A stretch of 64,000 nt of DNA from a virus, in the IMG/VR virus record IMGVR_UViG_3300045988_176106; one strand, 5' to 3'. Positions within the stretch are counted from its first letter, which is position 1. Each line of letters opens with the position of its first letter. A program made the translations under genes and the position numbers. Positions 2,504-63,956 of this stretch are shown here, in pieces. The notes beneath the pieces are model-generated. The model worked only from the letters and a program-made list of their open reading frames with translations, ran no database searches and was not told the DNA's origin.

Positions 2504-5121
2504 ATAATTTTTTAAATACATCAGAAAAGTATGTTGGGAATACTCCAAACTGGCAGTCTAATCTTATTGCAAAAGTTCAAGAAGATGGCAACAATCTAAT
2601 ATCAGATATAAATAAGCTCAACAATAAGATAACTAGCAATGTCGGTGAATTTGCAAAATATGTGGCCGCATTAAGAGATAAGATGGCCGAAGCTGTAGAT
2701 ATGTCATTATCTATGGCCTCTATATCTGGCAATAGTAATACACAGTACGATATTTCGCCTAGTGTTATATATTCATCAGAAAACGTTGTTGTAAAAAATA
2801 ACTCTGTATATATAAAACCAAAAGTTGCAAATAGATATACAATAGAGAATATAGAAGTTGATACATCTGGAACATATGGCAATTCTTCAGATTATGAAAA
2901 TCAAAGGTTTTACAATAAAGATACTATAGTATCAGATACGCAATTTGAAGTAGAAAGATTTAACCTACCTGTGTCTGCTACCTATACAATAAGATTATCT
3001 AAATTGTCTCCAGTTAATTTAATATCTTTTAAAGATGTCAATTTTGGCGTAGACATACCAGAAATAGTATCAATAGATGTATCTTCAGATGGAAAATCTT
3101 TTAAACGTATACCGTTCACAGTATTAAATGACTCTTTAAGAAGTATACAGATAGACGAATCATTTGTTAGAGTTTTAAGAGTTACAATTGTTCAGGATAA
3201 TGGATATATCTCTGATGGTAAAAGGAATAGATTTGCTATAGGCATATCAAATCTTTCGATTGGTATTACTACAGTTGAAGAACATGGAGAGATAATATTT
3301 GGCCCATTTAATTCTGGATATGAAATTTTAAAAGCATCAATAGCTGCTAAAATAAATAATGATGGATACTCTTTTAATAATTCACAATTCTCTATTAGCC
3401 CAGATTTAACAACATGGTATGACATAAGCACTCCGTACTCTATAAGTGAAAAACCTAAACATTTAGATTTTAATAATATATCGGATGGGTCTATATCAAC
3501 AGAAAACCCTGTAAGGGTTTTATATTTAAGAATAATATTCTCTGGTAAAAAATATAGCAATTCATATTCTGATAATAGAGTACAGAAACATACACAAAGT
3601 ATAACAAAAATAAATCCTGTAATAGTATCTCCATTTGATCTAGGAGAAAAATATATCTTAGGTAAACTTTTAAATAGTTATTATGGCGGAAGTATTACAA
3701 CAACTTCTTACTCTGATATAACTGGGACTACAGACTATATATCATCTATAAAAAGAAATAATGAATATGTATATAGATCTTTTGATAGTATGGGATATAT
3801 GGGAGAAACTAAAGTAAGGTATACTCCTAAAAGATGCAGAGTTGAAAAAGATAATAAATATAAAATAATATCTAGTGAGACTATAGAGCCCGAATCAGTA
3901 AAAGTATATTCATATTCAAATCCTATAAGAAGAGATATAAGAGTTGCAAATTCAGAAAATGTTGTACTAGCGTTTAATGAGCATGCCGGAGTGTATAGAC
4001 TTACAGATGGGAATATATACAGGGATTTAGATTTAACATCTGGATTTTTTGAGTCATGCTTCCAATGGACTTTTAAGCCATATGAAAAAGACTTATATTT
4101 ATATGGTCCATCAGGTGTAATAGTTCATACATTTAATGCTGGTGAACCTGTAAATCTTTTAGATTATTTTACATTTATTGCTCCGTTCTCATCTGAGAAA
4201 TCACCAGTAAATATGAAATTTAATAAGAAGTACCCAGAAGTTAAATTAGAAGATTCTGAATTTACTATAATAGATGGAAAAATATTTGCACATAATAGCT
4301 CTGCTATTATAAACTCAGACTATGTAGTAAAGAATAAATTAGACATAACAACAGATTTTTCTATAAATAGTATAGATATATACACTGATGATGTAAGATT
4401 GTCTAAAACTTCTGAATCATTAAATTCTTATGATGGATTAAAAGTTGCAAAACTGTTAAAGACTCAAATAATTAAAGGGTCTTTAGAATTTTCATATAAG
4501 AATGCTTCAGTATTCACATTCCTTAAAGAAGTAGATTTTATAAATGGGATCGATGAATTTAATACCGGCAACAGTATTGAAATACAATTGCCTAAGGGTG
4601 CTAATAAATTTTCATTAGGAAGGCTAATAGATCACTTTTCAGATTTAAATTTTGTAGGATATACAGACATATTTAAGACACAAGTTTACTCTGAAGCAGA
4701 ATTAATATATGCTGGAGATTATTTATTAACAGATGAAAATAATCAAACATATATAACATTAGCTGATAATGCAAAAACCCATGATTTAATAGATACATCT
4801 GTAATATTAGATACAAATATATCATCTGCTGGTACTGGATACTATTCTATTGATTACAATAATGGAATAATATATTCTCAATCTATAATTAGTGGTGATA
4901 TAAGAGTTTCATATTTGTACTCAAATGTATTTATAGAGGGCCAAAGTATGGAAACAATAGATAAAGAAAAATACGGAATATCTGGCAGAACTGTTACTGT
5001 AAAAGAACCATCAGACTCTGACACTTATGCTGTACTATCTTTATTAGAAGATTCTATAACGGTCAATATAAATAAATCTCCAGTTGTATCAAATATAACA
5101 TTAAATACAGTGATAGGATAA
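2500..5121 (+). CDS. large virion protein (baseplate/tail-fibre-like)
   Basis: 873 aa, Asn/Ser/Tyr/Ile-rich, coupled to the upstream ORF. Its position is just before the fibre genes. No catalytic motif seen. Confidence 0.45.
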   Translation: MNNFLNTSEKYVGNTPNWQSNLIAKVQEDGNNLISDINKLNNKITSNVGEFAKYVAALRDKMAEAVDMSLSMASISGNSNTQYDISPSVIYSSENVVVKNNSVYIKPKVANRYTIENIEVDTSGTYGNSSDYENQRFYNKDTIVSDTQFEVERFNLPVSATYTIRLSKLSPVNLISFKDVNFGVDIPEIVSIDVSSDGKSFKRIPFTVLNDSLRSIQIDESFVRVLRVTIVQDNGYISDGKRNRFAIGISNLSIGITTVEEHGEIIFGPFNSGYEILKASIAAKINNDGYSFNNSQFSISPDLTTWYDISTPYSISEKPKHLDFNNISDGSISTENPVRVLYLRIIFSGKKYSNSYSDNRVQKHTQSITKINPVIVSPFDLGEKYILGKLLNSYYGGSITTTSYSDITGTTDYISSIKRNNEYVYRSFDSMGYMGETKVRYTPKRCRVEKDNKYKIISSETIEPESVKVYSYSNPIRRDIRVANSENVVLAFNEHAGVYRLTDGNIYRDLDLTSGFFESCFQWTFKPYEKDLYLYGPSGVIVHTFNAGEPVNLLDYFTFIAPFSSEKSPVNMKFNKKYPEVKLEDSEFTIIDGKIFAHNSSAIINSDYVVKNKLDITTDFSINSIDIYTDDVRLSKTSESLNSYDGLKVAKLLKTQIIKGSLEFSYKNASVFTFLKEVDFINGIDEFNTGNSIEIQLPKGANKFSLGRLIDHFSDLNFVGYTDIFKTQVYSEAELIYAGDYLLTDENNQTYITLADNAKTHDLIDTSVILDTNISSAGTGYYSIDYNNGIIYSQSIISGDIRVSYLYSNVFIEGQSMETIDKEKYGISGRTVTVKEPSDSDTYAVLSLLEDSITVNINKSPVVSNITLNTVIG

Positions 5122-32067: not shown

Positions 32068-32337
32068 CAAAAAAATTCTATATATCAAATATATAGTGTT
32101 AAGTTTTTTATCTTAACAGTCCAGACTTCTTTTAATCTGGTTCGGCATATTTTTTCAACCGTTCTGGTTGCACCGGCCTCGTGGGTAGATTATATTCTGA
32201 TTAACAGTTTCACCACCTATGCTCTGCGCCTGACTATTGCTTTAAAATAGCCTTCGGACTCGAGTTAGCATCACAGCCTTCTCGCTTAATTCCGGTGTAA
32301 TAATAACCAATATTCCTATTGGAAACGCCAGATTCCT
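32068..32337 (-). mobile_element. group I intron (ORF-less) in dnaE, intron B
   Basis: It splits codon CT|A in YAGIVKL|DILGL (E. coli YAGLVKFDFLGL). The 5' exon ends in U and the intron ends ..TTTTTTG. It shares long sequence blocks with the recA intron (for example ttctcgcttaattccg and cggcctcgtgg). Confidence 0.75.
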
Positions 32338-33293
32338 AGCTTAACAATACCAGCATATTCTTCAATTTTGTTCCCTTCCCATTGGGTAACAGTTTTACCT
32401 TTACTATCCCATAATGGAACATCTTCCCATAATGGTCTATCGGATAACGCTACTCCACAATTATGTACTGCAATACCATTAGCAACATATGAAGAATCAT
32501 CTAAAACAGTAAGATTATATACATTAACTGTTTCATCATTCGATTCATTGTAATAATTAGACTGTTTCCATACATCAAGAACTAATCTTGTGGAAAGGCC
32601 TTTCCCTCCGGTATGTGAACTAACAACACCATAATGGCGACTTACATTTCCTGCTTTTACCCACCTACATTTACCAATATATAATCCATCTTCATCTGGC
32701 TCATCACTAAGACTGTCAAGTATAAGAATAGGATGATCAAGTGTACATTTTACAAATGAAAAATCATCATAATTAGTTTGTTGATAGGCTAGATGAACAA
32801 GATTACTCTTTTTAGATTCATTTACTTGAGTATCTACTACAGGTTTCCAATTTAATGAAGCTGTTAAAGCTAAATATCCAACCTTAACATCTTCGATGTT
32901 CATATACTCAGGTTCAGAATCTTCAGCTCTTTTTATAGTAACTTTGGTTCCTGCAACGAAGCAAGCATGCAATCCGGTACTTGAAATACAGTCTTGTAGC
33001 TTAATAGCATCATCCCAGATTTCTTTAATTTCTGGATCAGAATTATAAAGTTTCTTTATATCAGAATTTTCTTCTAATAAAACTTCTAATCTGGGACAAT
33101 TTATATCAGGCATAAGATTAGAAATCTTATTTGCCTTTTCAAATGACATACCATGAATGCGGGCAGCCGATTTAAATACTTGTTTACCAGCGGTATAAGT
33201 AATAGTACCCAAATGAGCAAATCCATCACCGTATTTTGCTTTTAAATAATCAAATACCTTTTGACGTTTATCATTACTGAAGTCACTATCGAT
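32338..33293 (-). CDS. dnaE: dnaE C-terminal gene, exon 2 (contains the mini-intein)
   Basis: IDSDFSNDKRQKVFDYLKAKYG...ITYTAGKQVFKSAARIHG aligns with E. coli FDVDFCMEKRDQVIEHV...[20 protein letters not shown]. It is in frame for 27 codons upstream of the ORF-track start. Confidence 0.85.
32460..32963 (-). mobile_element. 168-aa mini-intein in DnaE (no endonuclease domain)
   Basis: It is inserted at GLHA|C...VHN|CGVAL (E. coli KHAGGVVI). Block A is CFVAGTKVTI, block B is CTLDHPIL, and blocks F/G are VYNLTVLDDSSYVANGIAVHN followed by +1 Cys. Confidence 0.8.
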
Positions 33294-34394
33294 CCTTTAT
33301 GTTCAGTATGGGTCGCTAATTCCATACCCGGGAATAACCCAGCTGCATATTACTATGCAGAGCAGACTATATCTTCACCATATTAAAATTAACTTAGGTG
33401 CTGTGCGCTTGGAGCCGCTTGGCTCTACTTCCAAAGGAATAGTCGTTACACGTTCAATATATAAAATATCGCTTCGCTCGGTATTGTCCATGTAGGAGTT
33501 CCACCGAATTCACACAGTTTTCATTTACTCTTTTCAGAATAAAGGGACTTTAAATCAACAAATCTATTATATTTTCTATCTAAAAATATAGTTGAATCAT
33601 TATATAGATAATTCATAATATTGAAAACCTGAATGTTCCCACCAATATCTATATCATAATTATCATTATTCCTGTCCTTATGTCTTTTATTAAGGGTTTT
33701 ATGTTCAAACCCTATATATTTAAGGACAGAATTTAAAAAAGAAGAAGTTCCGCATAGCCTAAATCTATAAGTATATCCATTTTTTGCTTTATGTTTAGAT
33801 AATGACCCATCGCCATCAAAATACCCACGTATAAAATGACGAACAAGATTCTCATCTATATTTGGAAAAACTAATTTAAAAGTCTTGTTTTCTAAACATC
33901 CATGACTTATCAGATCATTCTTAAGTTTATTACTATAAATAATTACCCTAGCATACTCTCTATTAATATTATTAGTGTACCTAGATATTTTATTATTAGC
34001 ATTAAGACTTGCTAAAAATTTCTCAAGATGATTGATATCTTCAGTTGAAAGCGACAGTCCTATAGCATCTCTATCTGAAAGTATATATCCATCTGCATAC
34101 ATAAACCCAAGCCAATATGCTTTTTCTTCAGTATCTATAATATTGAAAAAATTATCATTACATTTATATTTTTTAGAATTTATAGAATTACTTCTTCTTT
34201 TTATATTTTTAGATTCAAGAACCGAATATACAGTATATAAACTTATGTCAAGTTCTTTTGAAATTTTGCATCCAGAGATTTTATCATCTGTATACATTTT
34301 TACAATTTTATCTTCAATTTCCATATATACACCTTTCAAAAAAATTGATGTATACATATAGTAATTTATAATTTAAGATTTGTCAATAATATTA
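33294..34394 (-). mobile_element. group I intron with a LAGLIDADG ORF in dnaE, intron A
   Basis: It separates ..GGGFPD| from |IDSDF (E. coli MPDFDVDF, the catalytic Asp pair). The 5' exon ends in U (GAT|TAA) and the intron ends ..AAAGG. The 3' core contains GAAGATATAGTCTGC (S-like element). Confidence 0.8.
33521..34324 (-). CDS. LAGLIDADG homing endonuclease (intron-encoded), with an N-terminal HTH
   Basis: Two LAGLIDADG motifs (WLGFMYADGYI and IRGYFDGDGSL). Start placed at MEIEDK, preceded by AAAGGTG. The ORF-track start at 34357 is also possible. Confidence 0.85.
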   Translation of the reverse strand: MEIEDKIVKMYTDDKISGCKISKELDISLYTVYSVLESKNIKRRSNSINSKKYKCNDNFFNIIDTEEKAYWLGFMYADGYILSDRDAIGLSLSTEDINHLEKFLASLNANNKISRYTNNINREYARVIIYSNKLKNDLISHGCLENKTFKLVFPNIDENLVRHFIRGYFDGDGSLSKHKAKNGYTYRFRLCGTSSFLNSVLKYIGFEHKTLNKRHKDRNNDNYDIDIGGNIQVFNIMNYLYNDSTIFLDRKYNRFVDLKSLYSEKSK

Positions 34395-45145: not shown

Positions 45146-45918
45146 TCCTTAATCCAAAAATCAATTTTATCTGAACCATAAATTAAAGCCATTTTTACTA
45201 TATTGCACATATCCTTATACGATAAATGTGCACCAGGAATTTTGTCATCAATAACATTTCCGGGGTAAATATTGAGAACTTTTCCTTCACTATTAGTAAG
45301 TGATATTCTATTAGTCAACTTAAGAGATTTACCAAGTCCAGGATCAGAAAGTTTTATTTCTTCTAAAACTTTATTAAGAAGATCCTCTACATTTATTGAT
45401 ACTAATTCTTCTGAATTTGTTATTACCTGGTCTTGTTTTTTAGAACCTAACTCTTTTTCTAATGGATCTTCGGCTAATCCAAAAGCTCCATCATCATGAA
45501 TCTTAGGTTCAGGTTTCATAACATTATCATTAGATTTTAAAAGTTCGAGATTCTTTTTAAAATCTTGGAGCAATTCCCAAAGTTGCATTTTATCATCGCT
45601 AACAGCAATGCTGGACGCATATTCCTTAATAGATCCAGTAAGGCCATATAATAGAACGCCTCTTTCTTTATCCACTATTGCGCCATTTAAAAGATCTTTA
45701 GCTTTATAAATCTTAGCGTCAATAAATTTACGAGCAATTACACCAAATAAACTATTAAAACATATAAATAAATTTTTATCAGATATGTCAATATCTGTAG
45801 ATGACACATCTAAAACCTTTATAAAGCTTTCAGAAACATCAATAAAAGATAAAACTTTTTTAATATCTTCTATATCAGTATTAGAAACTTTATCAGCTAT
45901 AATATAAACATTTTTCAT
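45142..45918 (-). CDS. hypothetical protein translationally coupled to the RT
   Basis: 258 aa. Its ATG shares one nucleotide with the RT stop (TAATG at 45916-45920). Confidence 0.45.
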   Translation of the reverse strand: MKNVYIIADKVSNTDIEDIKKVLSFIDVSESFIKVLDVSSTDIDISDKNLFICFNSLFGVIARKFIDAKIYKAKDLLNGAIVDKERGVLLYGLTGSIKEYASSIAVSDDKMQLWELLQDFKKNLELLKSNDNVMKPEPKIHDDGAFGLAEDPLEKELGSKKQDQVITNSEELVSINVEDLLNKVLEEIKLSDPGLGKSLKLTNRISLTNSEGKVLNIYPGNVIDDKIPGAHLSYKDMCNIVKMALIYGSDKIDFWIKD

Positions 45919-47954
45919 TAATTGACACCTATACTATTTTCAATAGTTTCAAATAGATTTATAAACTCTAAAGCAATTTTATCGCCATAAAAAATGGTTT
46001 TTAAATCAGAATAATATGATTTATCATTTATAGAATCAGAAAACACATCAAGCGGGAAAGAGATTATACTAGTATTTCTAAGATTAACTTTTGCAAATAA
46101 TCTTCTATCGCCAAGCTCATTATTACTTGCATAACTATAATTAAATAAAAAGTCTTTATATAATATATAATATATTAAAGTAAGTCTTAATTCGGGAATA
46201 CTAACTCTTTCCAATATATTCCTATTAGGAATAAATGCCCCACCAATGCTTTCATATTTTCTAATCGATATAGATTTCATAAATAAATCTGCGGAATCTT
46301 TTTCATGATATATGCGTATAATTGAATTAAGATATTCAGATTTTGAAACTTTTGAATTTTTAGATATGCTGTAAAACAATTCTCTGAAATCTTTTACTAC
46401 AGATTTATCAAAATATTTATCAAAAACATTTCTTAATCTATCGTCATTTAATTTAACATTCATACCATGATGGATAACGAAATCTTTGGTACCATTATTA
46501 TTAATACAATAAGATAAGAATCCTTTTGTTTTAGAGTCATAATTAAAATCCAAAGAATTAGAAATTAAATCAATCATTTCTTTACGTTTTGTAGATCCGA
46601 TATGAACAGTAGATTCAGAGGTCTTTCCAGGAGCAGGCACTACCAATCCCAAAATAGAAGCGTCTTCATGTCTTCTAAAAATCTTAGTCTTACTATAATT
46701 AAGATGAAGCCCATATCGATTAACAAGCTCATCTACTTTCTTAGCAATAGAGAAATCTATTTTATTTTCAGCAGACGTATTTGATGTGTAAATAGTAATA
46801 TCGTCAGCATATCTAATAAAATTATATTTAACATCCGTAGAAAGATCTTTTAGTAAACTTTTAAGTTTTATATCAAAATCCAATAAAAATATATTGCTTA
46901 ATACAGGGCTATAAGAAGCACCAGTAGGCAATTTATTATTATGCATTAAAAAAGACAGTGTTCTATAAAAGAATTGAAGAAAATATTCTCTTTTATCCGG
47001 CATACTTGGCTCTCTTAATGCAATAAATGAACCACTATCATTTACTTTATAAGACCCCGATACATTATTGCTACCAGAAGTAAAGAATTTATATAGCCTT
47101 CCCATCATTTTAATATCTTTGTATGGTTTAATTCTTCTAGGAAAAGCGAAAACACTTCTTATACTAAGCTTATTAAGATATATGCCATACTCATTAAATT
47201 TAAAAGATTTTGGACAACTTACTAAATCTTCAGATTCTTTAAACGAACTTTTTACAGCAGAAACATCTAAAGGCTTATTAAATACATACTCTAAATATTT
47301 ATATTTTTTACCAGAAATAGAATCAAATAAAATATTTACAACATCATTATCAAAGAATTTTTTCATATCAACATTGTTAAAAAATTTAGCAATGTCTATA
47401 TTAATAACTTCAGAGCGTTTATTCTGTAAAGTTTGCATTATTGACGCAATAGAAATATTTCTTCTAAATCCTATAATATTATGGTATAATCCTAAGCTTG
47501 AAATAGCTTTATCATATTCTTGTTCAAATATAAGAGTATAAAGACGATGAAAATATTTTATATTATTTATATCTTCTGCAGACAAAAGAGTATTTATAGT
47601 AGTGATTTTTCTACCTTTTCTATTTGTATAGTTCCTAAACAAAATTGTATCAGCAAAATCAGAAAGAAATTCAGATACAATAGAATAAGATTTTAATAGT
47701 TCGTCTCTTCCGCCAAAGTCGGGGAAATACATTTCCCGAAATTTATTTTTATTTACGCATTGGTTTAAAATGCCAATAGATTTAGTAACACTATCTTTAC
47801 TATTCTTGATATAGCATTTTTGACCTAAGTCTTTGTTAATGGCAGATTCACCTTTGATAATTTGATCTAAAATTAAGGAACACTTATTAGCATATCCAGA
47901 TGTAACAACAATAAGTGAATACCAAAATCTATTATCTGTAATATATCTATACAT
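45918..47954 (-). CDS. reverse transcriptase (retron/group II/Abi-like catalytic core) with large unique N- and C-terminal regions
   Basis: Motif A is INIDIAKFFNNV, motif B is LPTGASYSPVLSNIFL, motif C is FIRYADDITIY, and motif D is LHLNYSKTKIF. About 130 aa are inserted between motifs A and B, and the C-terminal region is ~230 aa. Confidence 0.85.
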   Translation of the reverse strand: MYRYITDNRFWYSLIVVTSGYANKCSLILDQIIKGESAINKDLGQKCYIKNSKDSVTKSIGILNQCVNKNKFREMYFPDFGGRDELLKSYSIVSEFLSDFADTILFRNYTNRKGRKITTINTLLSAEDINNIKYFHRLYTLIFEQEYDKAISSLGLYHNIIGFRRNISIASIMQTLQNKRSEVINIDIAKFFNNVDMKKFFDNDVVNILFDSISGKKYKYLEYVFNKPLDVSAVKSSFKESEDLVSCPKSFKFNEYGIYLNKLSIRSVFAFPRRIKPYKDIKMMGRLYKFFTSGSNNVSGSYKVNDSGSFIALREPSMPDKREYFLQFFYRTLSFLMHNNKLPTGASYSPVLSNIFLLDFDIKLKSLLKDLSTDVKYNFIRYADDITIYTSNTSAENKIDFSIAKKVDELVNRYGLHLNYSKTKIFRRHEDASILGLVVPAPGKTSESTVHIGSTKRKEMIDLISNSLDFNYDSKTKGFLSYCINNNGTKDFVIHHGMNVKLNDDRLRNVFDKYFDKSVVKDFRELFYSISKNSKVSKSEYLNSIIRIYHEKDSADLFMKSISIRKYESIGGAFIPNRNILERVSIPELRLTLIYYILYKDFLFNYSYASNNELGDRRLFAKVNLRNTSIISFPLDVFSDSINDKSYYSDLKTIFYGDKIALEFINLFETIENSIGVN

Positions 47955-61071: not shown

Positions 61072-61279
61072 AACTATTCCTATTTATAAGTTATTTAATA
61101 GCCCCAAGATTCATTTTGGCTATAATATTTATAACCTCTTATTTTAATGTCTTTTAAAATTTTTAACAACTTAAAATAAATTTCACTATTTGTCATTTTT
61201 ATATCCTACAAATAATTTATTCAGTCTGGTACCCGAGGTGGGATTCGAACCCACAAGGTCATTACGACCGGAAGATTTT

Positions 61280-61991
61280 CCTACTACTCTTACTTTCGCA
61301 AGCCAATAAAAATTGTTGTAGTCTGGACTATATCATCACCTTTAGCATTATCTATTAAGGTGTCCTGTGCATAGTCTCTGAACCTTCCTCATATTAAAAT
61401 TAACTTAGAGGCTCGGCTGCTGATTGGCCAATTTCAGATATTTTTAAAACATTCGCATTCGTCATTTCTAACCATGCTGTAGTTATCTGAACTATAAGGC
61501 TTTTCCAGCAATTCTCAGGATTCTCATTTGCTGATTTCTCAACAATGACTCTTTGTTCATCTAAATATGAATGCAATTTGCTATGATCAGAACGAGACAT
61601 TAACAATAAATTACTTTTATCATTATTAAGATGGTTATCATCTATATGATGAATTACTTCATTTGAAGATAACTTTCTTCCTAATGCATTTTCAGCAATT
61701 TCTCTATGTAAGTTTTTAGAACTTTTGCTAACCTTTATATAATTGTTATTTGCTTTATTTTGCTTAGCAAAGAACAATTTTAAATTATAGCAATCTTTAC
61801 ATAGTCTTTGTTGTTTTCTCCATGCATCAAAAACAGTATTGCAAGCAACACATGTATTATGAAACATATATTTTGGCTTAGATCTTGCAAGATCTCTTGA
61901 TCTTTTACGATTGCATTCTTTGCATAATCTTCTGCCAGAGCTTCTTTCTGCTCCACAAATTTTACATATTAACAATTAAATGAACCCTACA
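61280..61991 (-). mobile_element. group I intron in tRNA-Leu(UAA), inserted after U34, carrying an HNH ORF
   Basis: The core contains GGTTCAGAGACTATGCAC (R-like) and GATATAGTCCAGAC (S-like). The intron ends ..TAGTAGG (omega-G). The 5' region GGGUU can pair with exon GACUU (P1 with U.G). Confidence 0.8.
61400..61975 (-). CDS. HNH homing endonuclease (intron-encoded), N-terminal zinc ribbons
   Basis: VIHHIDDNHLNNDKSNLLLMSRSDHSKLH is the HNH motif. CxxC pairs at the N-terminus. The only in-frame start is TTG at 61975. Confidence 0.8.
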   Translation of the reverse strand: MLICKICGAERSSGRRLCKECNRKRSRDLARSKPKYMFHNTCVACNTVFDAWRKQQRLCKDCYNLKLFFAKQNKANNNYIKVSKSSKNLHREIAENALGRKLSSNEVIHHIDDNHLNNDKSNLLLMSRSDHSKLHSYLDEQRVIVEKSANENPENCWKSLIVQITTAWLEMTNANVLKISEIGQSAAEPLS

Positions 61992-62079
61992 AAGTCTTCT
62001 GCATTTACCTGATTTCGCCACTCGGGTATATTGCCCTGTTATATACAGGACATATATTATTTGGCTGGCATGGTAGGGA

Positions 62080-62616
62080 CTATGCTTTATTTTCAGCTTT
62101 AGCCCAATATCCTCTAGGAGGTCTTTTCACGCCTAATAATTTACATCTTTTACCTATAGCAACATCGGATACACCTAAAAGTTTTGCAACTTCTACCATA
62201 GGTCTAGACCAAACCAATTCTTCTAAATCCTTAGCATTAATCTTAAATTTTCTTCTAAATTTTTTAGCACAACTAGAAGAACAATATTTTCTATCAGATG
62301 TATGTGTAACCTCAAAAATATTTCCGCATTCACACATCCTGTTTTCAAACACAATTCCCCTATCTTCAATCATATGGAGTCTAGTATGTTCAAGATTAGT
62401 CATTAATTGAAGATTATCTAAAGAATTATTAGCCTTGTTTCTATCTTTATGATGAACTACCTCATCAGGATACAAATCTCTACCTAAATGCCTTATCATT
62501 TTGAATCTATGTTCATAAATAATTCCGGCTTCATTTGCTAATTCATGTTCAGGAGCATAAGCCTGTATATACCCTAAGACTTTATTTAATTTAAATACTA
62601 AGTCTTCATCTTTCAT
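62080..62616 (-). CDS. free-standing HNH endonuclease with a C-terminal zinc ribbon and HTH
   Basis: VVHHKDRNKANNSLDNLQLMTNLEHTRLH is the HNH motif. Start trimmed to MKDEDL because the ORF-track N-terminus overlaps tRNA-His. Confidence 0.8.
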   Translation of the reverse strand: MKDEDLVFKLNKVLGYIQAYAPEHELANEAGIIYEHRFKMIRHLGRDLYPDEVVHHKDRNKANNSLDNLQLMTNLEHTRLHMIEDRGIVFENRMCECGNIFEVTHTSDRKYCSSSCAKKFRRKFKINAKDLEELVWSRPMVEVAKLLGVSDVAIGKRCKLLGVKRPPRGYWAKAENKA

Positions 62617-62994: not shown

Positions 62995-63115
62995 AAAGAT
63001 ATCGCTTTAAAGCGAATATGCATAATAATATAATTTAATATAAGTAATATAGCACTTGTGGTAGCTGACACCAATTTGTTTTGTCAGTGATAAAACCTAG
63101 ACAAAAGAAATACAT

Positions 63116-63406
63116 TTAATCAGGTAAATGTTGCCATGCAACAACATTTTTATTTTTAGATAAGAACATCAAATTTTCATATCTTCCGCAATATTTAGAG
63201 AGAAACACTTTATATTTCTTACCTCTAGAAACAGCACCATTAATTGGTTTTGCACTTAAAGAAGCCATTTCTCTATCGACAATCATTCTGCTGACATTAA
63301 TACTACCATCAGCATTTAGAATTATGATATCTTCACAGCAGCCTTTTTCAGATGGACAATCAATAAATCTCCATTTTTCATTATCCGCCGCATCTTCTAA
63401 ATACAT
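63116..63406 (-). CDS. hypothetical protein
   Basis: 96-aa ORF between tRNA genes. No confident motif. Confidence 0.4.
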   Translation of the reverse strand: MYLEDAADNEKWRFIDCPSEKGCCEDIIILNADGSINVSRMIVDREMASLSAKPINGAVSRGKKYKVFLSKYCGRYENLMFLSKNKNVVAWQHLPD

Positions 63407-63487
63407 CCAGTATTCAATATCTGCACTATTGTATTCTTTATAAATACTTATACCATCAATATCACCAACAGGAATTCCTGTAAATAC

Positions 63488-63661
63488 TTATTTACAGTTT
63501 TTTAAAAACTCTTCTCTTGGCAATATTTCATCATTAAATTCTTTAGGCAAATAACGCTCATAATAAGCAAAACCAACCACACCGTCTTTAGTTTTTACAA
63601 GAATATTTTTACGACTACGGTCTGGTTTCCGTTCTTTTATAGGAATCCATTTGTTATTCAT
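63488..63661 (-). CDS. small DUF551-like protein (below the ORF-track cutoff)
   Basis: Hand translation gives MNNKWIPIKERKPDRSRKNILVKTKDGVVGFAYYERYLPKEFNDEILPREEFLKNCK*. The KWIPIKERKP..ILV opening is typical of DUF551. Confidence 0.4.
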   Translation of the reverse strand: MNNKWIPIKERKPDRSRKNILVKTKDGVVGFAYYERYLPKEFNDEILPREEFLKNCK

Positions 63662-63687
63662 TTTTTATTTCCTATATATTTATATTT

Positions 63688-63775
63688 TGGTGAGGGCGGT
63701 TGGATTCGAACCAACTCCGTTTCATAGTGCCAGATTTACAGTCTGGTGCAATTCCGCCATCATTGCCGCACCCCC
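63688..63775 (-). tRNA. tRNA-Tyr: tRNA-Tyr (GUA), type II, CCA encoded
   Basis: Acceptor GGGGGTG/CGCCCTC (two G.U pairs), D-stem GCAA/TTGC, anticodon arm CCAGA-CTGTAAA-TCTGG, T-arm GTTGG-TTCGAAT-CCAAC. Confidence 0.8.
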
Positions 63776-63779
63776 ATAT

Positions 63780-63855
63780 TGGTACTGAAAGTCAGAATCG
63801 AACTGACAACCTATTGCTTGTAGGGCAATTGCTCTACCTATTGAGCTATTTCAGT
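63780..63855 (-). tRNA. tRNA-Val: tRNA-Val (UAC), CCA encoded
   Basis: Acceptor ACTGAAA/TTTCAGT, D-arm GCTC..GAGC, anticodon arm ATTGC-CCTACAA-GCAAT, T-arm GTCAG-TTCGATT-CTGAC. Confidence 0.8.
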
Positions 63856-63866
63856 ACAGAATAAAC

Positions 63867-63956
63867 TGGTACGAAGGGTGGGTCTCGAACCCACACTCCA
63901 GGTTCACTGAAACAAGATTTTAAATCTCGCATGTCTACCTCTTCAATCACCTTCGT
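63867..63956 (-). tRNA. tRNA-Leu: second, intron-less tRNA-Leu (UAA), type II, CCA encoded
   Basis: Acceptor ACGAAGG/CCTTCGT, anticodon arm CGAGA-TTTAAAA-TCTTG, long variable arm, T-arm GTGGG-TTCGAGA-CCCAC. Confidence 0.7.

Follow-up and report, generated by a model that had tools for sequence, protein, structure and literature searches.

An HNH-encoding group I intron in the anticodon loop of a phage tRNA-Leu(UAA) gene is a member of a phage-borne intron family

We analysed a 64,000-nt stretch of viral DNA (the window) and found that one of its tRNA-Leu(UAA) genes is interrupted, between U34 and A35 of the anticodon loop, by what is very probably a mobile group I intron with its own HNH homing endonuclease, the splicing and cleavage activities of which we infer. 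The intron belongs to a large family carried by phages, which recasts a question raised by the first-pass annotation: whether the site was captured independently or reached by horizontal transfer of the cyanobacterial and plastid tRNA-Leu intron. That annotation had read the locus as a tRNA-Leu(UAA) gene with a group I intron after U34, an HNH endonuclease inside the intron and a second copy of the tRNA nearby; ARAGORN, Rfam, Pfam, covariation within the family and an empty-site allele all bear this reading out. The phage of the window is a large phage from the human mouth.

Results

The split tRNA-Leu(UAA) gene and its empty-site allele

The split gene is located on the minus strand, as a member of a tRNA array. 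Its parts and the second tRNA-Leu(UAA) gene are given below; L075 is a related phage contig in which the same site is empty.

61992-62027, minus strand: tRNA-Leu(UAA) 5' exon (exon 1), 36 nt, ACCCGAG...GAAGACUU, ending CUU, at U34 (ARAGORN on the joined exons and with -i; L075 alignment)
61280-61991, minus strand: group I intron, 712 nt, starting UGUAGGG and ending GUAGUAGG, with the omega-G at 61280 (Rfam RF00028; missing from L075; family covariation)
61400-61975, minus strand: HNH homing-endonuclease ORF, 191 aa, TTG start at intron nt 17 (ORF list; Pfam and PHROG HNH families)
61227-61279, minus strand: tRNA-Leu(UAA) 3' exon (exon 2), 53 nt, AAAAUCUUC..., starting AAAA (ARAGORN; L075 alignment)
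63867-63956, minus strand: second tRNA-Leu(UAA), uninterrupted, 90 nt, anticodon loop UUUAAAA (ARAGORN; Rfam tRNA, 41.5 bits)

Exon 2 contains the long variable arm, the T arm, A73 and an encoded CCA (61229-61227). When the two exons were joined, ARAGORN identified the resulting 89 nt as tRNA-Leu(taa), a type II molecule in which A73, a long variable arm and the anticodon loop CUUAAAA are present; the first-pass annotation had reconstituted the same molecule from the exon halves. The second tRNA-Leu(UAA), previously noted as intron-less and different in sequence, was detected by both ARAGORN and Rfam and is approximately 66% identical to the spliced gene in a pairwise alignment; it falls in a segment where the window and L075 differ. 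Codon usage indicated that UUA and UUG account for 55% of the leucine codons in the phage.

L075 matches the window at 93-96% identity, and its copy of this tRNA gene is uninterrupted, with 88 of 89 positions identical; A1 in the window as against G1 tells the two genes apart. Positions 8886-8921 of L075 align to exon 1 and those from 8922 onward to exon 2, and since the BLAST alignment of the window with L075 breaks exactly at 61992 and 61279, the splice junction is fixed after U34. The L075 site reads GACTTAAAATC, in which the loop is CUUAAAA, i.e. UAA and not GAA, and ARAGORN calls it Leu(taa). The intron is a presence/absence polymorphism between the window and L075, produced by either gain or precise loss. 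There is no sign of a fresh co-conversion tract, because the flanks of the insertion (about 89-94% identical to L075) are as diverged as the remaining genome. The intron-bearing gene was found, identical, in at least eight contigs from several samples.

The ribozyme core and its fold

A search with a group I covariance model, which had been proposed as a check, found the core: cmscan matched Rfam Intron_gpI (RF00028) at 61576-61305 with 73.6 bits (E = 8.8e-17; gathering score 50). The R-like and S-like elements described earlier for the 712-nt insert are GGTTCAGAGACTA at 61384-61372 and GATATAGTCC at 61334-61325, and the final base of the intron (61280) is indeed G. The intron has a complete P1-P9 fold supported by covariation, made up of the following elements.

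61553-61990, minus strand: L1, the loop of P1, a 438-nt non-ribozyme insert with the body of the HNH ORF (ORF-less relatives; ORF indel)
61547-61552, minus strand: internal guide sequence, the 3' strand of P1, AGAGUC (U.G invariance; covariation of neighbouring pairs)
61528-61545, minus strand: P2 hairpin, UUGUUGA GAAA UCAGCAA (compensatory changes in 7 of 7 pairs; 95.9% of cells paired)
61383-61520, minus strand: P3 5' strand (61520-61514) and P4-P6 domain (Rfam alignment; family covariation)
61510-61505 and 61423-61418, minus strand: P4, invariant in the family
61500-61498 and 61429-61427, minus strand: P5, which covaries
61491-61433, minus strand: P5a-P5b extension with a GAAA loop and an A-rich bulge; P5a and P5b covary
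61416-61383, minus strand: P6 and P6a; P6a covaries
61326-61376, minus strand: catalytic centre, with the P7 5' strand GACUAU (61376-61371) and the P3 3' strand CACAGGA (61369-61363) (Rfam; covariation)
61361-61338 and 61331-61326, minus strand: rest of the catalytic centre, P8 and the P7 3' strand AUAGUC, respectively
61280-61322, minus strand: P9 domain, with P9 ACUAC/GUAGU (61322-61318 and 61287-61283); every pair in the helices of the domain covaries

Across 31 family members, 94.5% of the cells in the P1-P9 fold were paired, compared with 31-40% in controls with slid partners; compensatory change was observed in 48 of 75 pairs, compared with 13-20 when the partners were slid. P3 and P7 together make up a pseudoknot. 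P9 encloses a small hairpin and P9b (CUUGC GAAA GUAAG, 61302-61289), and is followed by AGG up to the omega-G at 61280.

The guide AGAGUC is located 439 nt 3' of the 5' splice site. The exon sequence GACUU together with U1 of the intron can pair with it; G61551 then stands opposite U34, and this wobble pair marks the 5' splice site. This U.G pair of P1 is present in 31 of 31 family members, and the pairs flanking it covary. A local P1, formed by GACUU and GGGUU with a UGUA loop (61987-61983), was also considered and was ruled out by the conserved, covarying guide that the family has 3' of the ORF. In ORF-less relatives, L1 measures 13-41 nt.

The intron family in large phages

The HNH homologues form at least 99 clusters. 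We examined 24 distinct ORF-bearing loci, on contigs of 16-458 kb, and 23 of them are tRNA-Leu(UAA) genes; one nuclease variant was found on 458 contigs, and ORF-less forms of the family measure 278-333 nt. The family is widespread in large uncultivated phages, and the intron of the window is not a one-off. The annotation of its proteins stops at 'hypothetical protein' or 'HNH endonuclease', and default tRNA finders miss the family tRNA or call it Phe. For family members, the ARAGORN calls 'Phe(gaa)', 'SeC', 'Lys', 'Leu(tag)' and 'Tyr' were rejected after manual inspection of the exon/guide pairing, by which all are Leu(UAA). Core-only tblastn matches in Moorella, Neomoorella and other Firmicutes were not accepted as family members, because they are flagellin-gene introns that have the P4-P6 sequence in common and are not tRNA introns. 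A megablast comparison of the locus with GenBank phages gave a tRNA-Ser match only, and neither the exact core pattern nor the downstream 127-aa protein had a match in IMG/VR.

Within the family, gains, losses and swaps of the nuclease ORF have occurred independently of the ribozyme. L010 and L038 differ by a clean, in-frame 432-nt ORF indel at L1; the ORF is present in L010, L012 and L018 and missing in L038, L039 and L057, and in these phages the upstream flank is 96% identical and the intron core about 89-100% identical. L041 and L014 have the same intron and exons with a different HNH ORF, i.e. a nuclease swap. Similarity between ribozymes was uncorrelated with similarity between their host tRNAs (rho = 0.01, 325 pairs); for instance, the cores of L023 and L045 are 90% identical and their tRNAs 61% identical. 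Two splice registers exist in the family, U34 with the guide GAGUC and U33 with GGUC, and the guide tracks the register: a one-base change of the guide (GAGUC to GGUC) moved the splice site from U34 to U33.

Relation to the classical tRNA-Leu introns

The first-pass annotation had pointed out that the cyanobacterial and plastid tRNA-Leu(UAA) intron occupies the same position, between U34 and A35, and this coincidence extends to a P1 of CUU/GAG with its U.G wobble (compare CUU/a...g/AAAA in Williams 2020). It is possible, although we lean against it, that the phage family descends by horizontal transfer from this IC3 lineage and did not arrive at the site independently. The identical site and exon/guide pairing count in favour of such descent, and the periphery agrees with it: P2 has a GAAA cap and J2/3 is similar, and the P9 domain consists of two nested hairpins, the second GAAA-capped, followed by AAG, as in the bacterial IC3 tRNA introns of Williams' seed alignment. 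The terminal G and the lack of P2.1 and P7.1/7.2 are likewise shared with the classical intron. In addition, the 735-kb phage LR756501 carries a classical IC3-type tRNA-Leu intron, the P9 of which (ACUAC/GUAGU) equals the family consensus.

The core, however, speaks for no such descent. In a short MAFFT-added alignment with an alignable core of about 100 nt, the values of which are indicative only, classical Leu introns were identical at 55% of the core columns, other IC3-like tRNA introns at 54% and a retrieval-biased set of flagellin and phage protein-gene introns at 64%; the approximately 55% identity to Leu.3Ug introns is thus no higher than that to tRNA introns at other sites, and by the same table the cores of Leu.3Ug introns appear no closer than those of other group I introns. 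The P4-P6 columns are 88% identical to those of flagellin- and phage-gene introns, a set that was itself retrieved with this motif. The family has UCAGAGACUA/GAUAUAGUCC as its core signature, not the classical GUAGAGACUA/GGGAUAGUCC, and this R/S signature is shared with many introns in protein genes of phages and bacteria.

IC3 is, in the Michel-Westhof classification, a compact fold that lacks a P5abc-type extension. The family departs from it by the P5a-P5b extension of approximately 59 nt (61491-61433 in the window), the helices of which covary and which is missing in IC3; the Leu.3Ug seeds in Williams' alignment have a short L5. The general Rfam model, with which the intron of the window scored 73.6 bits, places the classical-type phage intron L063 below the gathering score. 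Classical tRNA-Leu(UAA) introns are hosted by a bacterium or a plastid, whereas that of the window is in a phage and has an HNH ORF in L1. As judged from these alignments, core identity and the P5 extension provide no specific link to the cyanobacterial lineage, and the periphery resembles that of bacterial tRNA (IC3) introns.

The HNH nuclease and its overlap with the ribozyme

The ORF sits inside the intron (61280-61991) and matches Pfam HNH_3 at 1.2e-9; its TTG start, at intron nt 17, lies 16 nt from the 5' splice site, as originally described. The protein has two N-terminal CxxC pairs and an HNH motif at residues 109-135 (approximately 61651-61571), and C7, C18, C42, C62, H109, N118, N122, H131 and H135 are invariant across 28 HNH homologues. 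A profile search of PDB sequences and a Foldseek search with a pLDDT-88 model returned no meaningful relative of solved structure, and tblastn of the protein against GenBank phages at 1e-8 returned no match.

The ORF had been taken as peripheral sequence of the intron. This holds for its body, which is in the P1 loop, and not for its last 153 nt (61552-61400), which are ribozyme sequence: the last 51 codons cover the guide, P2, P3, P4, the P5 extension, P4' and P6, and the stop codon UAA (61402-61400) falls within the P6a loop. Translation through P1'-P6 should hinder folding of the ribozyme.

We consider it rather unlikely, if conceivable, that the 5' half of the ribozyme (guide, P2, P3, P4, P5a-P5b, P4' and P6) serves both as catalytic RNA and as code, the same 153 nt specifying a structured, helical C-terminal module of the nuclease. 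All 28 aligned HNH homologues read at least into L6, and AlphaFold2 predicted a confident helix for residues 153-172; against this, ORF-less and flagellin-gene relatives keep the same frame open, the swapped nuclease of L041 stops 5' of the guide sequence, and a codon-position test for codon periodicity or protein-level selection in the overlap was not significant (p = 0.09). If this reading were true, no single transcript could be both translated and spliced, and the amount of nuclease would be linked to the folding of the ribozyme.

Discussion

Proposed splicing and homing

We propose that the RNA would splice itself through two transesterifications, using an external G and then the omega-G, and that splicing would release an 89-nt tRNA-Leu(UAA) reading UUA and UUG. 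The HNH protein may be made from the P1 loop, with either the precursor or the excised intron as its message. By analogy with known homing endonucleases, it could nick or cut the tRNA-Leu(UAA) gene of a co-infecting phage where that gene lacks the intron, as the L075 allele does, and recombinational repair would then copy the intron into the cut allele, i.e. homing.

The interrupted gene might instead be a pseudogene in which the intron no longer splices and the function of which is supplied by the copy at 63867-63956, but we regard this as improbable. That copy is a second UAA isoacceptor 1.8 kb away, the splicing of the split gene is deduced from DNA, and translation of the ORF across the 5' half of the ribozyme could impede folding. 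Yet all catalytic elements are intact and fit the family consensus, and both the U.G wobble and the omega-G are present. The exons differ from the intact L075 allele at one of 89 positions while the rest of the L075 genome is 4-7% diverged; the exons are therefore still under constraint. The recurrence of the identical intron-bearing gene in those eight or more contigs from several samples also argues against decay, as does the compensatory evolution of exon and guide in P1 across the family, which is relevant only with splicing.

For the working intron that we favour, the splice register was also examined with ARAGORN in its intron-detection mode, which upheld the gene bounds and the 712-nt intron of the first reading and set the junction one base upstream (CU/U...G/GAAAA), giving an anticodon GAA and a 'tRNA-Phe'. 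This placement is possible because the intron begins with U and finishes with GG, and either register has a U 5' of the site and a G at the intron end, but it is scarcely credible: the tRNA body is type II with A73 and leucine-like, in the pairing with the guide GAGUC U33 faces A and U34 faces G, which puts the cleavage-site wobble at U34, only the U34 register gives a terminal G in the closest relatives L010, L012 and L018 because their introns end in AAG, and the empty-site allele reads CUUAAAA.

Comparison with other systems

The homing endonuclease I-Ssp6803I belongs to the PD-(D/E)XK nucleases and is not an HNH enzyme. It is encoded by the tRNA-fMet group I intron of Synechocystis PCC 6803 (Bonocora and Shub 2001, as cited in PMC3984707), which resembles the intron of the window in being an anticodon-loop tRNA intron with its own homing endonuclease, and differs from it in the tRNA, the insertion site, the bacterial host and the nuclease family. 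The target of I-Ssp6803I is the anticodon region in the tRNA gene that lacks the intron; for the HNH protein of the window such a target is presumed by analogy.

Group I introns with HNH genes are known from protein-coding genes of phages, among them Twort, T4-type phages, and SPO1 and SP82, in which the DNA polymerase gene is the host gene (I-HmuI/II) (PMC3984707). They are phage-borne and self-splicing (as predicted for the window), encode HNH homing endonucleases and show presence/absence polymorphism among related phages, and the P4-P7 core of the window intron is 70-75% identical to several phage protein-gene group I introns. Their host genes encode proteins, whereas the intron of the window interrupts a tRNA gene. 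A 2014 review of bacterial group I introns stated that all phage introns then known were in protein-coding genes despite the abundance of phage tRNA genes (PMC3984707), and the phage tRNA-Leu intron is an exception to this generalization. In the literature searched, we found no account of a homing endonuclease encoded by a group I intron in a phage tRNA gene.

Introns termed 'enigmatic' and previously unreported were noted in tRNA genes of Lak megaphages (Devoto et al., 2018 preprint, doi 10.1101/356790). They too interrupt tRNA genes of large phages, and these phages likewise come from animal-associated microbiomes. The preprint's description of them goes no further than 'enigmatic' and appears to mention no group I core or ORF, whereas the insert of the window is a group I ribozyme of 712 nt that includes a gene for a nuclease.

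The family constitutes a natural experiment, with ORF-less (278-nt) and ORF-bearing forms, an ORF indel, a nuclease swap and a shift from U34 to U33 with a one-base change of the guide. The permuted-intron synthesis of circular RNA relies mainly on tRNA-Leu introns, and the compact phage variants, with their extra stabilizing P5 domain, may serve this purpose.

A free-standing HNH gene (62080-62616) adjoins the split tRNA and has overwritten a tRNA-Asn. It is paralleled by SegB, a free-standing GIY-YIG homing endonuclease of the T4 tRNA gene cluster that drives preferential inheritance of a tRNA gene region in phage (PMC2330249). SegB is of another nuclease type and has no intron, whereas at the locus of the window one nuclease is intron-borne. 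The intron and the neighbouring HNH gene over the tRNA-Asn are an instance of homing endonucleases remodelling phage tRNA arrays.

The split tRNA-Leu(UAA) gene and its exact junction

The first-pass annotation had described a tRNA-Leu(UAA) gene split by an insert that carries an HNH ORF with a TTG start, plus an uninterrupted tRNA-Leu(UAA) of different sequence. All elements of this observation are real, and the features were located as follows.

62027-61992, minus strand: 5' part of the tRNA up to wobble position U34, ACCCGAGUGGCGAAAUCAGGUAAAUGCAGAAGACUU
61279-61227, minus strand: remaining part of the tRNA, AAAAUCUUCCGGUCGUAAUGACCUUGUGGGUUCGAAUCCCACCUCGGGUACCA
61975-61400, minus strand: HNH ORF of 191 aa, beginning with TTG at nt 17 of the intron; similar to Pfam HNH_3 (1.2e-9) and several PHROG HNH families
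63956-63867, minus strand: second tRNA-Leu(taa), loop UUUAAAA, ~66% identical to the spliced gene

ARAGORN called the joined exons (89 nt) as tRNA-Leu(taa). The 7 bp of the acceptor stem are all perfect, the variable arm is long, and the sequence has A73 and encodes the CCA. When run on the window with intron detection, it returned identical outer gene bounds and a 712-nt intron, with the label 'Phe(gaa)' and a junction off by one base. This slide is possible only because the intron starts with U and ends with GG. The 'Phe(gaa)' register was ruled out independently: in the guide GAGUC, the partners of U33 and U34 are A and G, respectively, which places the cleavage after U34.

A 41-nt probe for the ligated junction, spanning the anticodon arm, was scanned against metagenome contigs and matched one, L075 (ERZ772909 NODE-13, 182,045 bp), a relative with 93-96% identity to the window across the entire tRNA array. 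Its tRNA-Leu(UAA) gene has no intron and agrees with the predicted spliced product at 88 of 89 positions. The BLAST alignment of L075 with the window stops at window 61992 and restarts at 61279, fixing the intron bounds as 61991-61280; gene anatomy and exact junction were established. The empty allele reads GACTTAAAATC, which shows UAA to be the anticodon, ancestral or restored. As L075 lacks the intron, its presence or absence is polymorphic among close phage relatives.

Other differences in the tRNA array

The split tRNA-Leu is separated from tRNA-His by a free-standing HNH_3 gene (window 62062-62616, minus strand). The most likely start codon of this gene is ATG 62616; the longer listed ORF overruns tRNA-His. 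It has only the HNH motif in common with the intron nuclease (48% over 48 aa). At this position L075 has a complete tRNA-Asn(GUU) as well as a spacer. Of that tRNA the window keeps only the final 18 nt (TCCCTACCATGCCAGCCA, 62079-62062) immediately after the HNH stop codon, indicating that the HNH gene overwrote the 5' 57 nt of the tRNA gene and that the breakpoint falls within the T loop. Comparison of window 62995-63956 with L075:7223-8427 shows that the array is a mosaic: in place of the lone Leu(UAG) of L075, the window carries Val(UAC) and the second Leu(UAA). An additional, odd Leu(taa)-like gene with loop CUUAAUG is inserted beside tRNA-Trp in L075 and absent from the window.

Several tRNA genes carry 49-55-nt inserts in or near the anticodon arm (L005:490-618, L075:3957-4081 and 4936-5062, L010:2265-2409); the L005 locus belongs to the same phage as the window, past the window end. 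ARAGORN -i called these genes Val(cac), Trp(cca) and Ile(tat), their Rfam tRNA matches span 114-124 nt, and no group I core was found in the inserts. They recall the tRNA introns of Lak megaphages; that preprint (doi 10.1101/356790) describes phage tRNA introns as previously unreported and its own as 'enigmatic'.

A conserved group I fold

With 73.6 bits (E = 8.8e-17; gathering score 50), the Rfam Intron_gpI model matched minus-strand positions 61576-61305 of the intron. That the P1 loop houses the ORF is evident from relatives without an ORF. We aligned 31 family members with the P1 loop removed, drew the structure on the window sequence and projected it onto the others. The predicted helices are listed below.

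61552-61547, minus strand: P1 guide AGAGUC, pairing with exon GACUU and U1
P2: GAAA loop
P5a-P5b extension: A-rich bulge and GAAA loop
P9: enclosing P9b, which has a GAAA loop
Other helices: P3, P4, P5, P6/P6a, P7 and P8

Standard pairs occupied 94.5% of cells, versus 31-40% when partners were slid by 1-3 columns, although a structure drawn from one member favours itself over slid versions on this percentage. Compensatory counts are less affected: two-sided changes occurred at 48 of 75 pairs, compared with 13-20 in the slid controls. None of 500 shuffles reached the observed pairing values, and the U.G wobble at the 5' splice site was present in 31/31 sequences. This comparison showed a predicted ribozyme fold that is complete and maintained in evolution.

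Insertion occurs in two registers, after U34 (CUU/...G/AAAA, guide GAGUC) and after U33 (ACU/...G/UAAAA, guide GGUC), and both fit identical column pairs. Five of the six U33-type members fell into one group in a neighbour-joining tree of the core.

These features are very probably explained by a splicing group I intron with an HNH homing nuclease in tRNA-Leu(UAA). The intron would splice itself out to give a tRNA-Leu(UAA) that would serve UUA/UUG codons (55% of leucine codons); the nuclease would be expressed and would cleave intron-less alleles, into which the intron would home. Most of the remaining weight goes to a non-splicing pseudogene, against which both the conservation of the exons and the covariation between exon and guide argue.

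A short complement of the exon 1 end lies near the intron 5' end, close to the ORF start (GGGUU, window 61983-61987, minus strand); relatives (L038, L012) have AGUCUU or AAGUCU at intron nt ~8-16. Such a segment could form a local hairpin competing with the long-range P1. In P6a (window 61390-61408, minus strand), CUAAG (61408-61404) stands opposite UAUG (61393-61390), which resembles the 11-nt GAAA-tetraloop receptor and is a candidate dock for the P5b GAAA loop, as in Tetrahymena P4-P6. Several family members, though not all, have this motif, and the ORF stop codon lies just 3' of it.

Gain, loss and exchange of the nuclease ORF

At least 99 homologue clusters of the HNH protein were found (90% identity clustering, E < 1e-20), with 36-99% identity to the window protein and most near full length; their best annotation was 'hypothetical protein' or 'HNH endonuclease [Caudoviricetes sp.]'. 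The HNH ORF of the window is intact and under conservation. Surroundings were collected for about 35 distinct loci, taken from IMG/VR, GTDB genomes and ENA/Logan assemblies. Full-length homologues occurred at 24 distinct loci, on contigs of 16 to 458 kb, and a split tRNA-Leu(UAA) could be recognised at 23 of them (all but L036), some after ARAGORN mis-calls were corrected by hand.

Family introns of 278-333 nt without an ORF occur in L038, L039, L057, L042, L046, L047 and L056, and L040 has a 480-nt form. Upstream of the tRNA, the flanks of L010 and L038 match at 96% identity, and blocks of their intron cores are ~89-100% identical; the two differ by a clean 432-nt (144-codon) indel, the nuclease ORF. 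The L041/L043 intron has exons and core as in L014, yet carries a different, unrelated HNH-like ORF of 162 aa, which stops ahead of the guide sequence. Over 325 pairs drawn from the family, similarity between ribozymes was uncorrelated with that between the tRNA exons hosting them (Spearman rho = 0.01); in one pair, the cores are 90% and the tRNAs 61% identical. Sequence comparison showed polymorphisms of intron, ORF and nuclease type. The indel, the nuclease swap, the ORF-less forms and the uncorrelated similarity are the signature expected if the intron moves from one tRNA-Leu(UAA) gene to another while its nuclease gene cycles into and out of it.

Overlap of the ORF with the ribozyme

The ORF is not confined to the periphery of the ribozyme: its last 51 codons (61552-61400) are also the guide, P2, P3, P4, P5a-P5b, P4' and P6. 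The frame runs on through P7, P8 and P9 in many homologues, producing conserved 'peptides' (ENCW, TTAWLETT, EIGQSAAEPL, EGSETM, DIVQTTT). Such ORF/ribozyme overlaps are already known (Fig. 2b, PMC3984707).

The evidence that the tail may be under protein-level selection is mixed. AlphaFold2 predicted residues 153-172 as a confident helix, which a highly conserved alignment alone could yield. Against selection, codon periodicity of column entropy in the tail was not significant (p = 0.09) and the L041 ORF stops early. The same frame is also open in ORF-less members and in flagellin-gene introns with a common P4-P6 sequence, so openness is seemingly a property of the conserved RNA.

Relation to known group I introns

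Among the 5,292 split bacterial tRNA genes found by Williams (2020), Leu.3Ug (CUU/a...g/AAAA) is the classical class, all IC3. Compared with the 26-sequence structural seed of that study, the phage family has a like P1 pairing, GAAA-looped P2 and similar J2/3, and in common with it a distinctive P9 domain (CCAG-P9-AA(A/C)-hairpin-[stem GAAA stem]-P9'-AAG). Unlike the seed introns, it has the P5a-P5b extension, and UCAGAGACUA/GAUAUAGUCC instead of GUAGAGACUA/GGGAUAGUCC. Its core identity to classical Leu introns (~55%) equals that to tRNA introns at other sites.

The P4-P6 columns were 88% identical to Moorella-group flagellin-gene and phage-gene introns, a set retrieved by that motif and therefore biased. 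By blastn, P4-P7 was 70-75% identical to many phage protein-gene introns. P7 is of the tRNA-intron type (GAGACUA/UAGUCC), versus ACGACUA/UAGUCU in flagellin and phage protein-gene introns. We conclude that the window intron would function, and is laid out, like a bacterial tRNA intron plus a P5 domain; membership of the family in the cyanobacterial IC3 lineage was not demonstrated. A compact classical intron of IC3 type, 205 nt long, splits the tRNA-Leu(UAA) gene of LR756501, an unannotated 735-kb phage.

According to a 2014 review, all phage introns known by then were in protein-coding genes, though phage tRNA genes are many (PMC3984707). Our full-text search, with most subscription journals outside its scope, returned no account of a nuclease-bearing group I intron in a phage tRNA gene, and an earlier one is possible.

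The window genome and its other introns

The window is AT-rich (~30% G+C) and encodes a ribonucleotide reductase, a primase-helicase and a DNA polymerase; its virion-protein match is weak. An identical HNH protein occurs on at least eight contigs from human oral metagenomes (longest, 186,693 bp), and no relatives of the locus were found among GenBank phages. The polymerase gene appears to be split by a second group I intron (33569-33343, minus strand; Rfam 85.5 bits), which neighbours a DNA-polymerase fragment (32316-33212) and adjoins an endonuclease ORF (33521-34357, minus strand, 278 aa, PHROG 4645; site 33343-34357). A 678-aa ORF (45918-47954, minus strand) matches PHROG 'polymerase' (6e-20) and 'reverse transcriptase' (1.7e-11) at residues ~340-465. 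L054, an IMG/VR contig, has three separate Rfam group I matches within 3.1 kb (307-572, 1454-1697 and 1907-2150; 57-67 bits).
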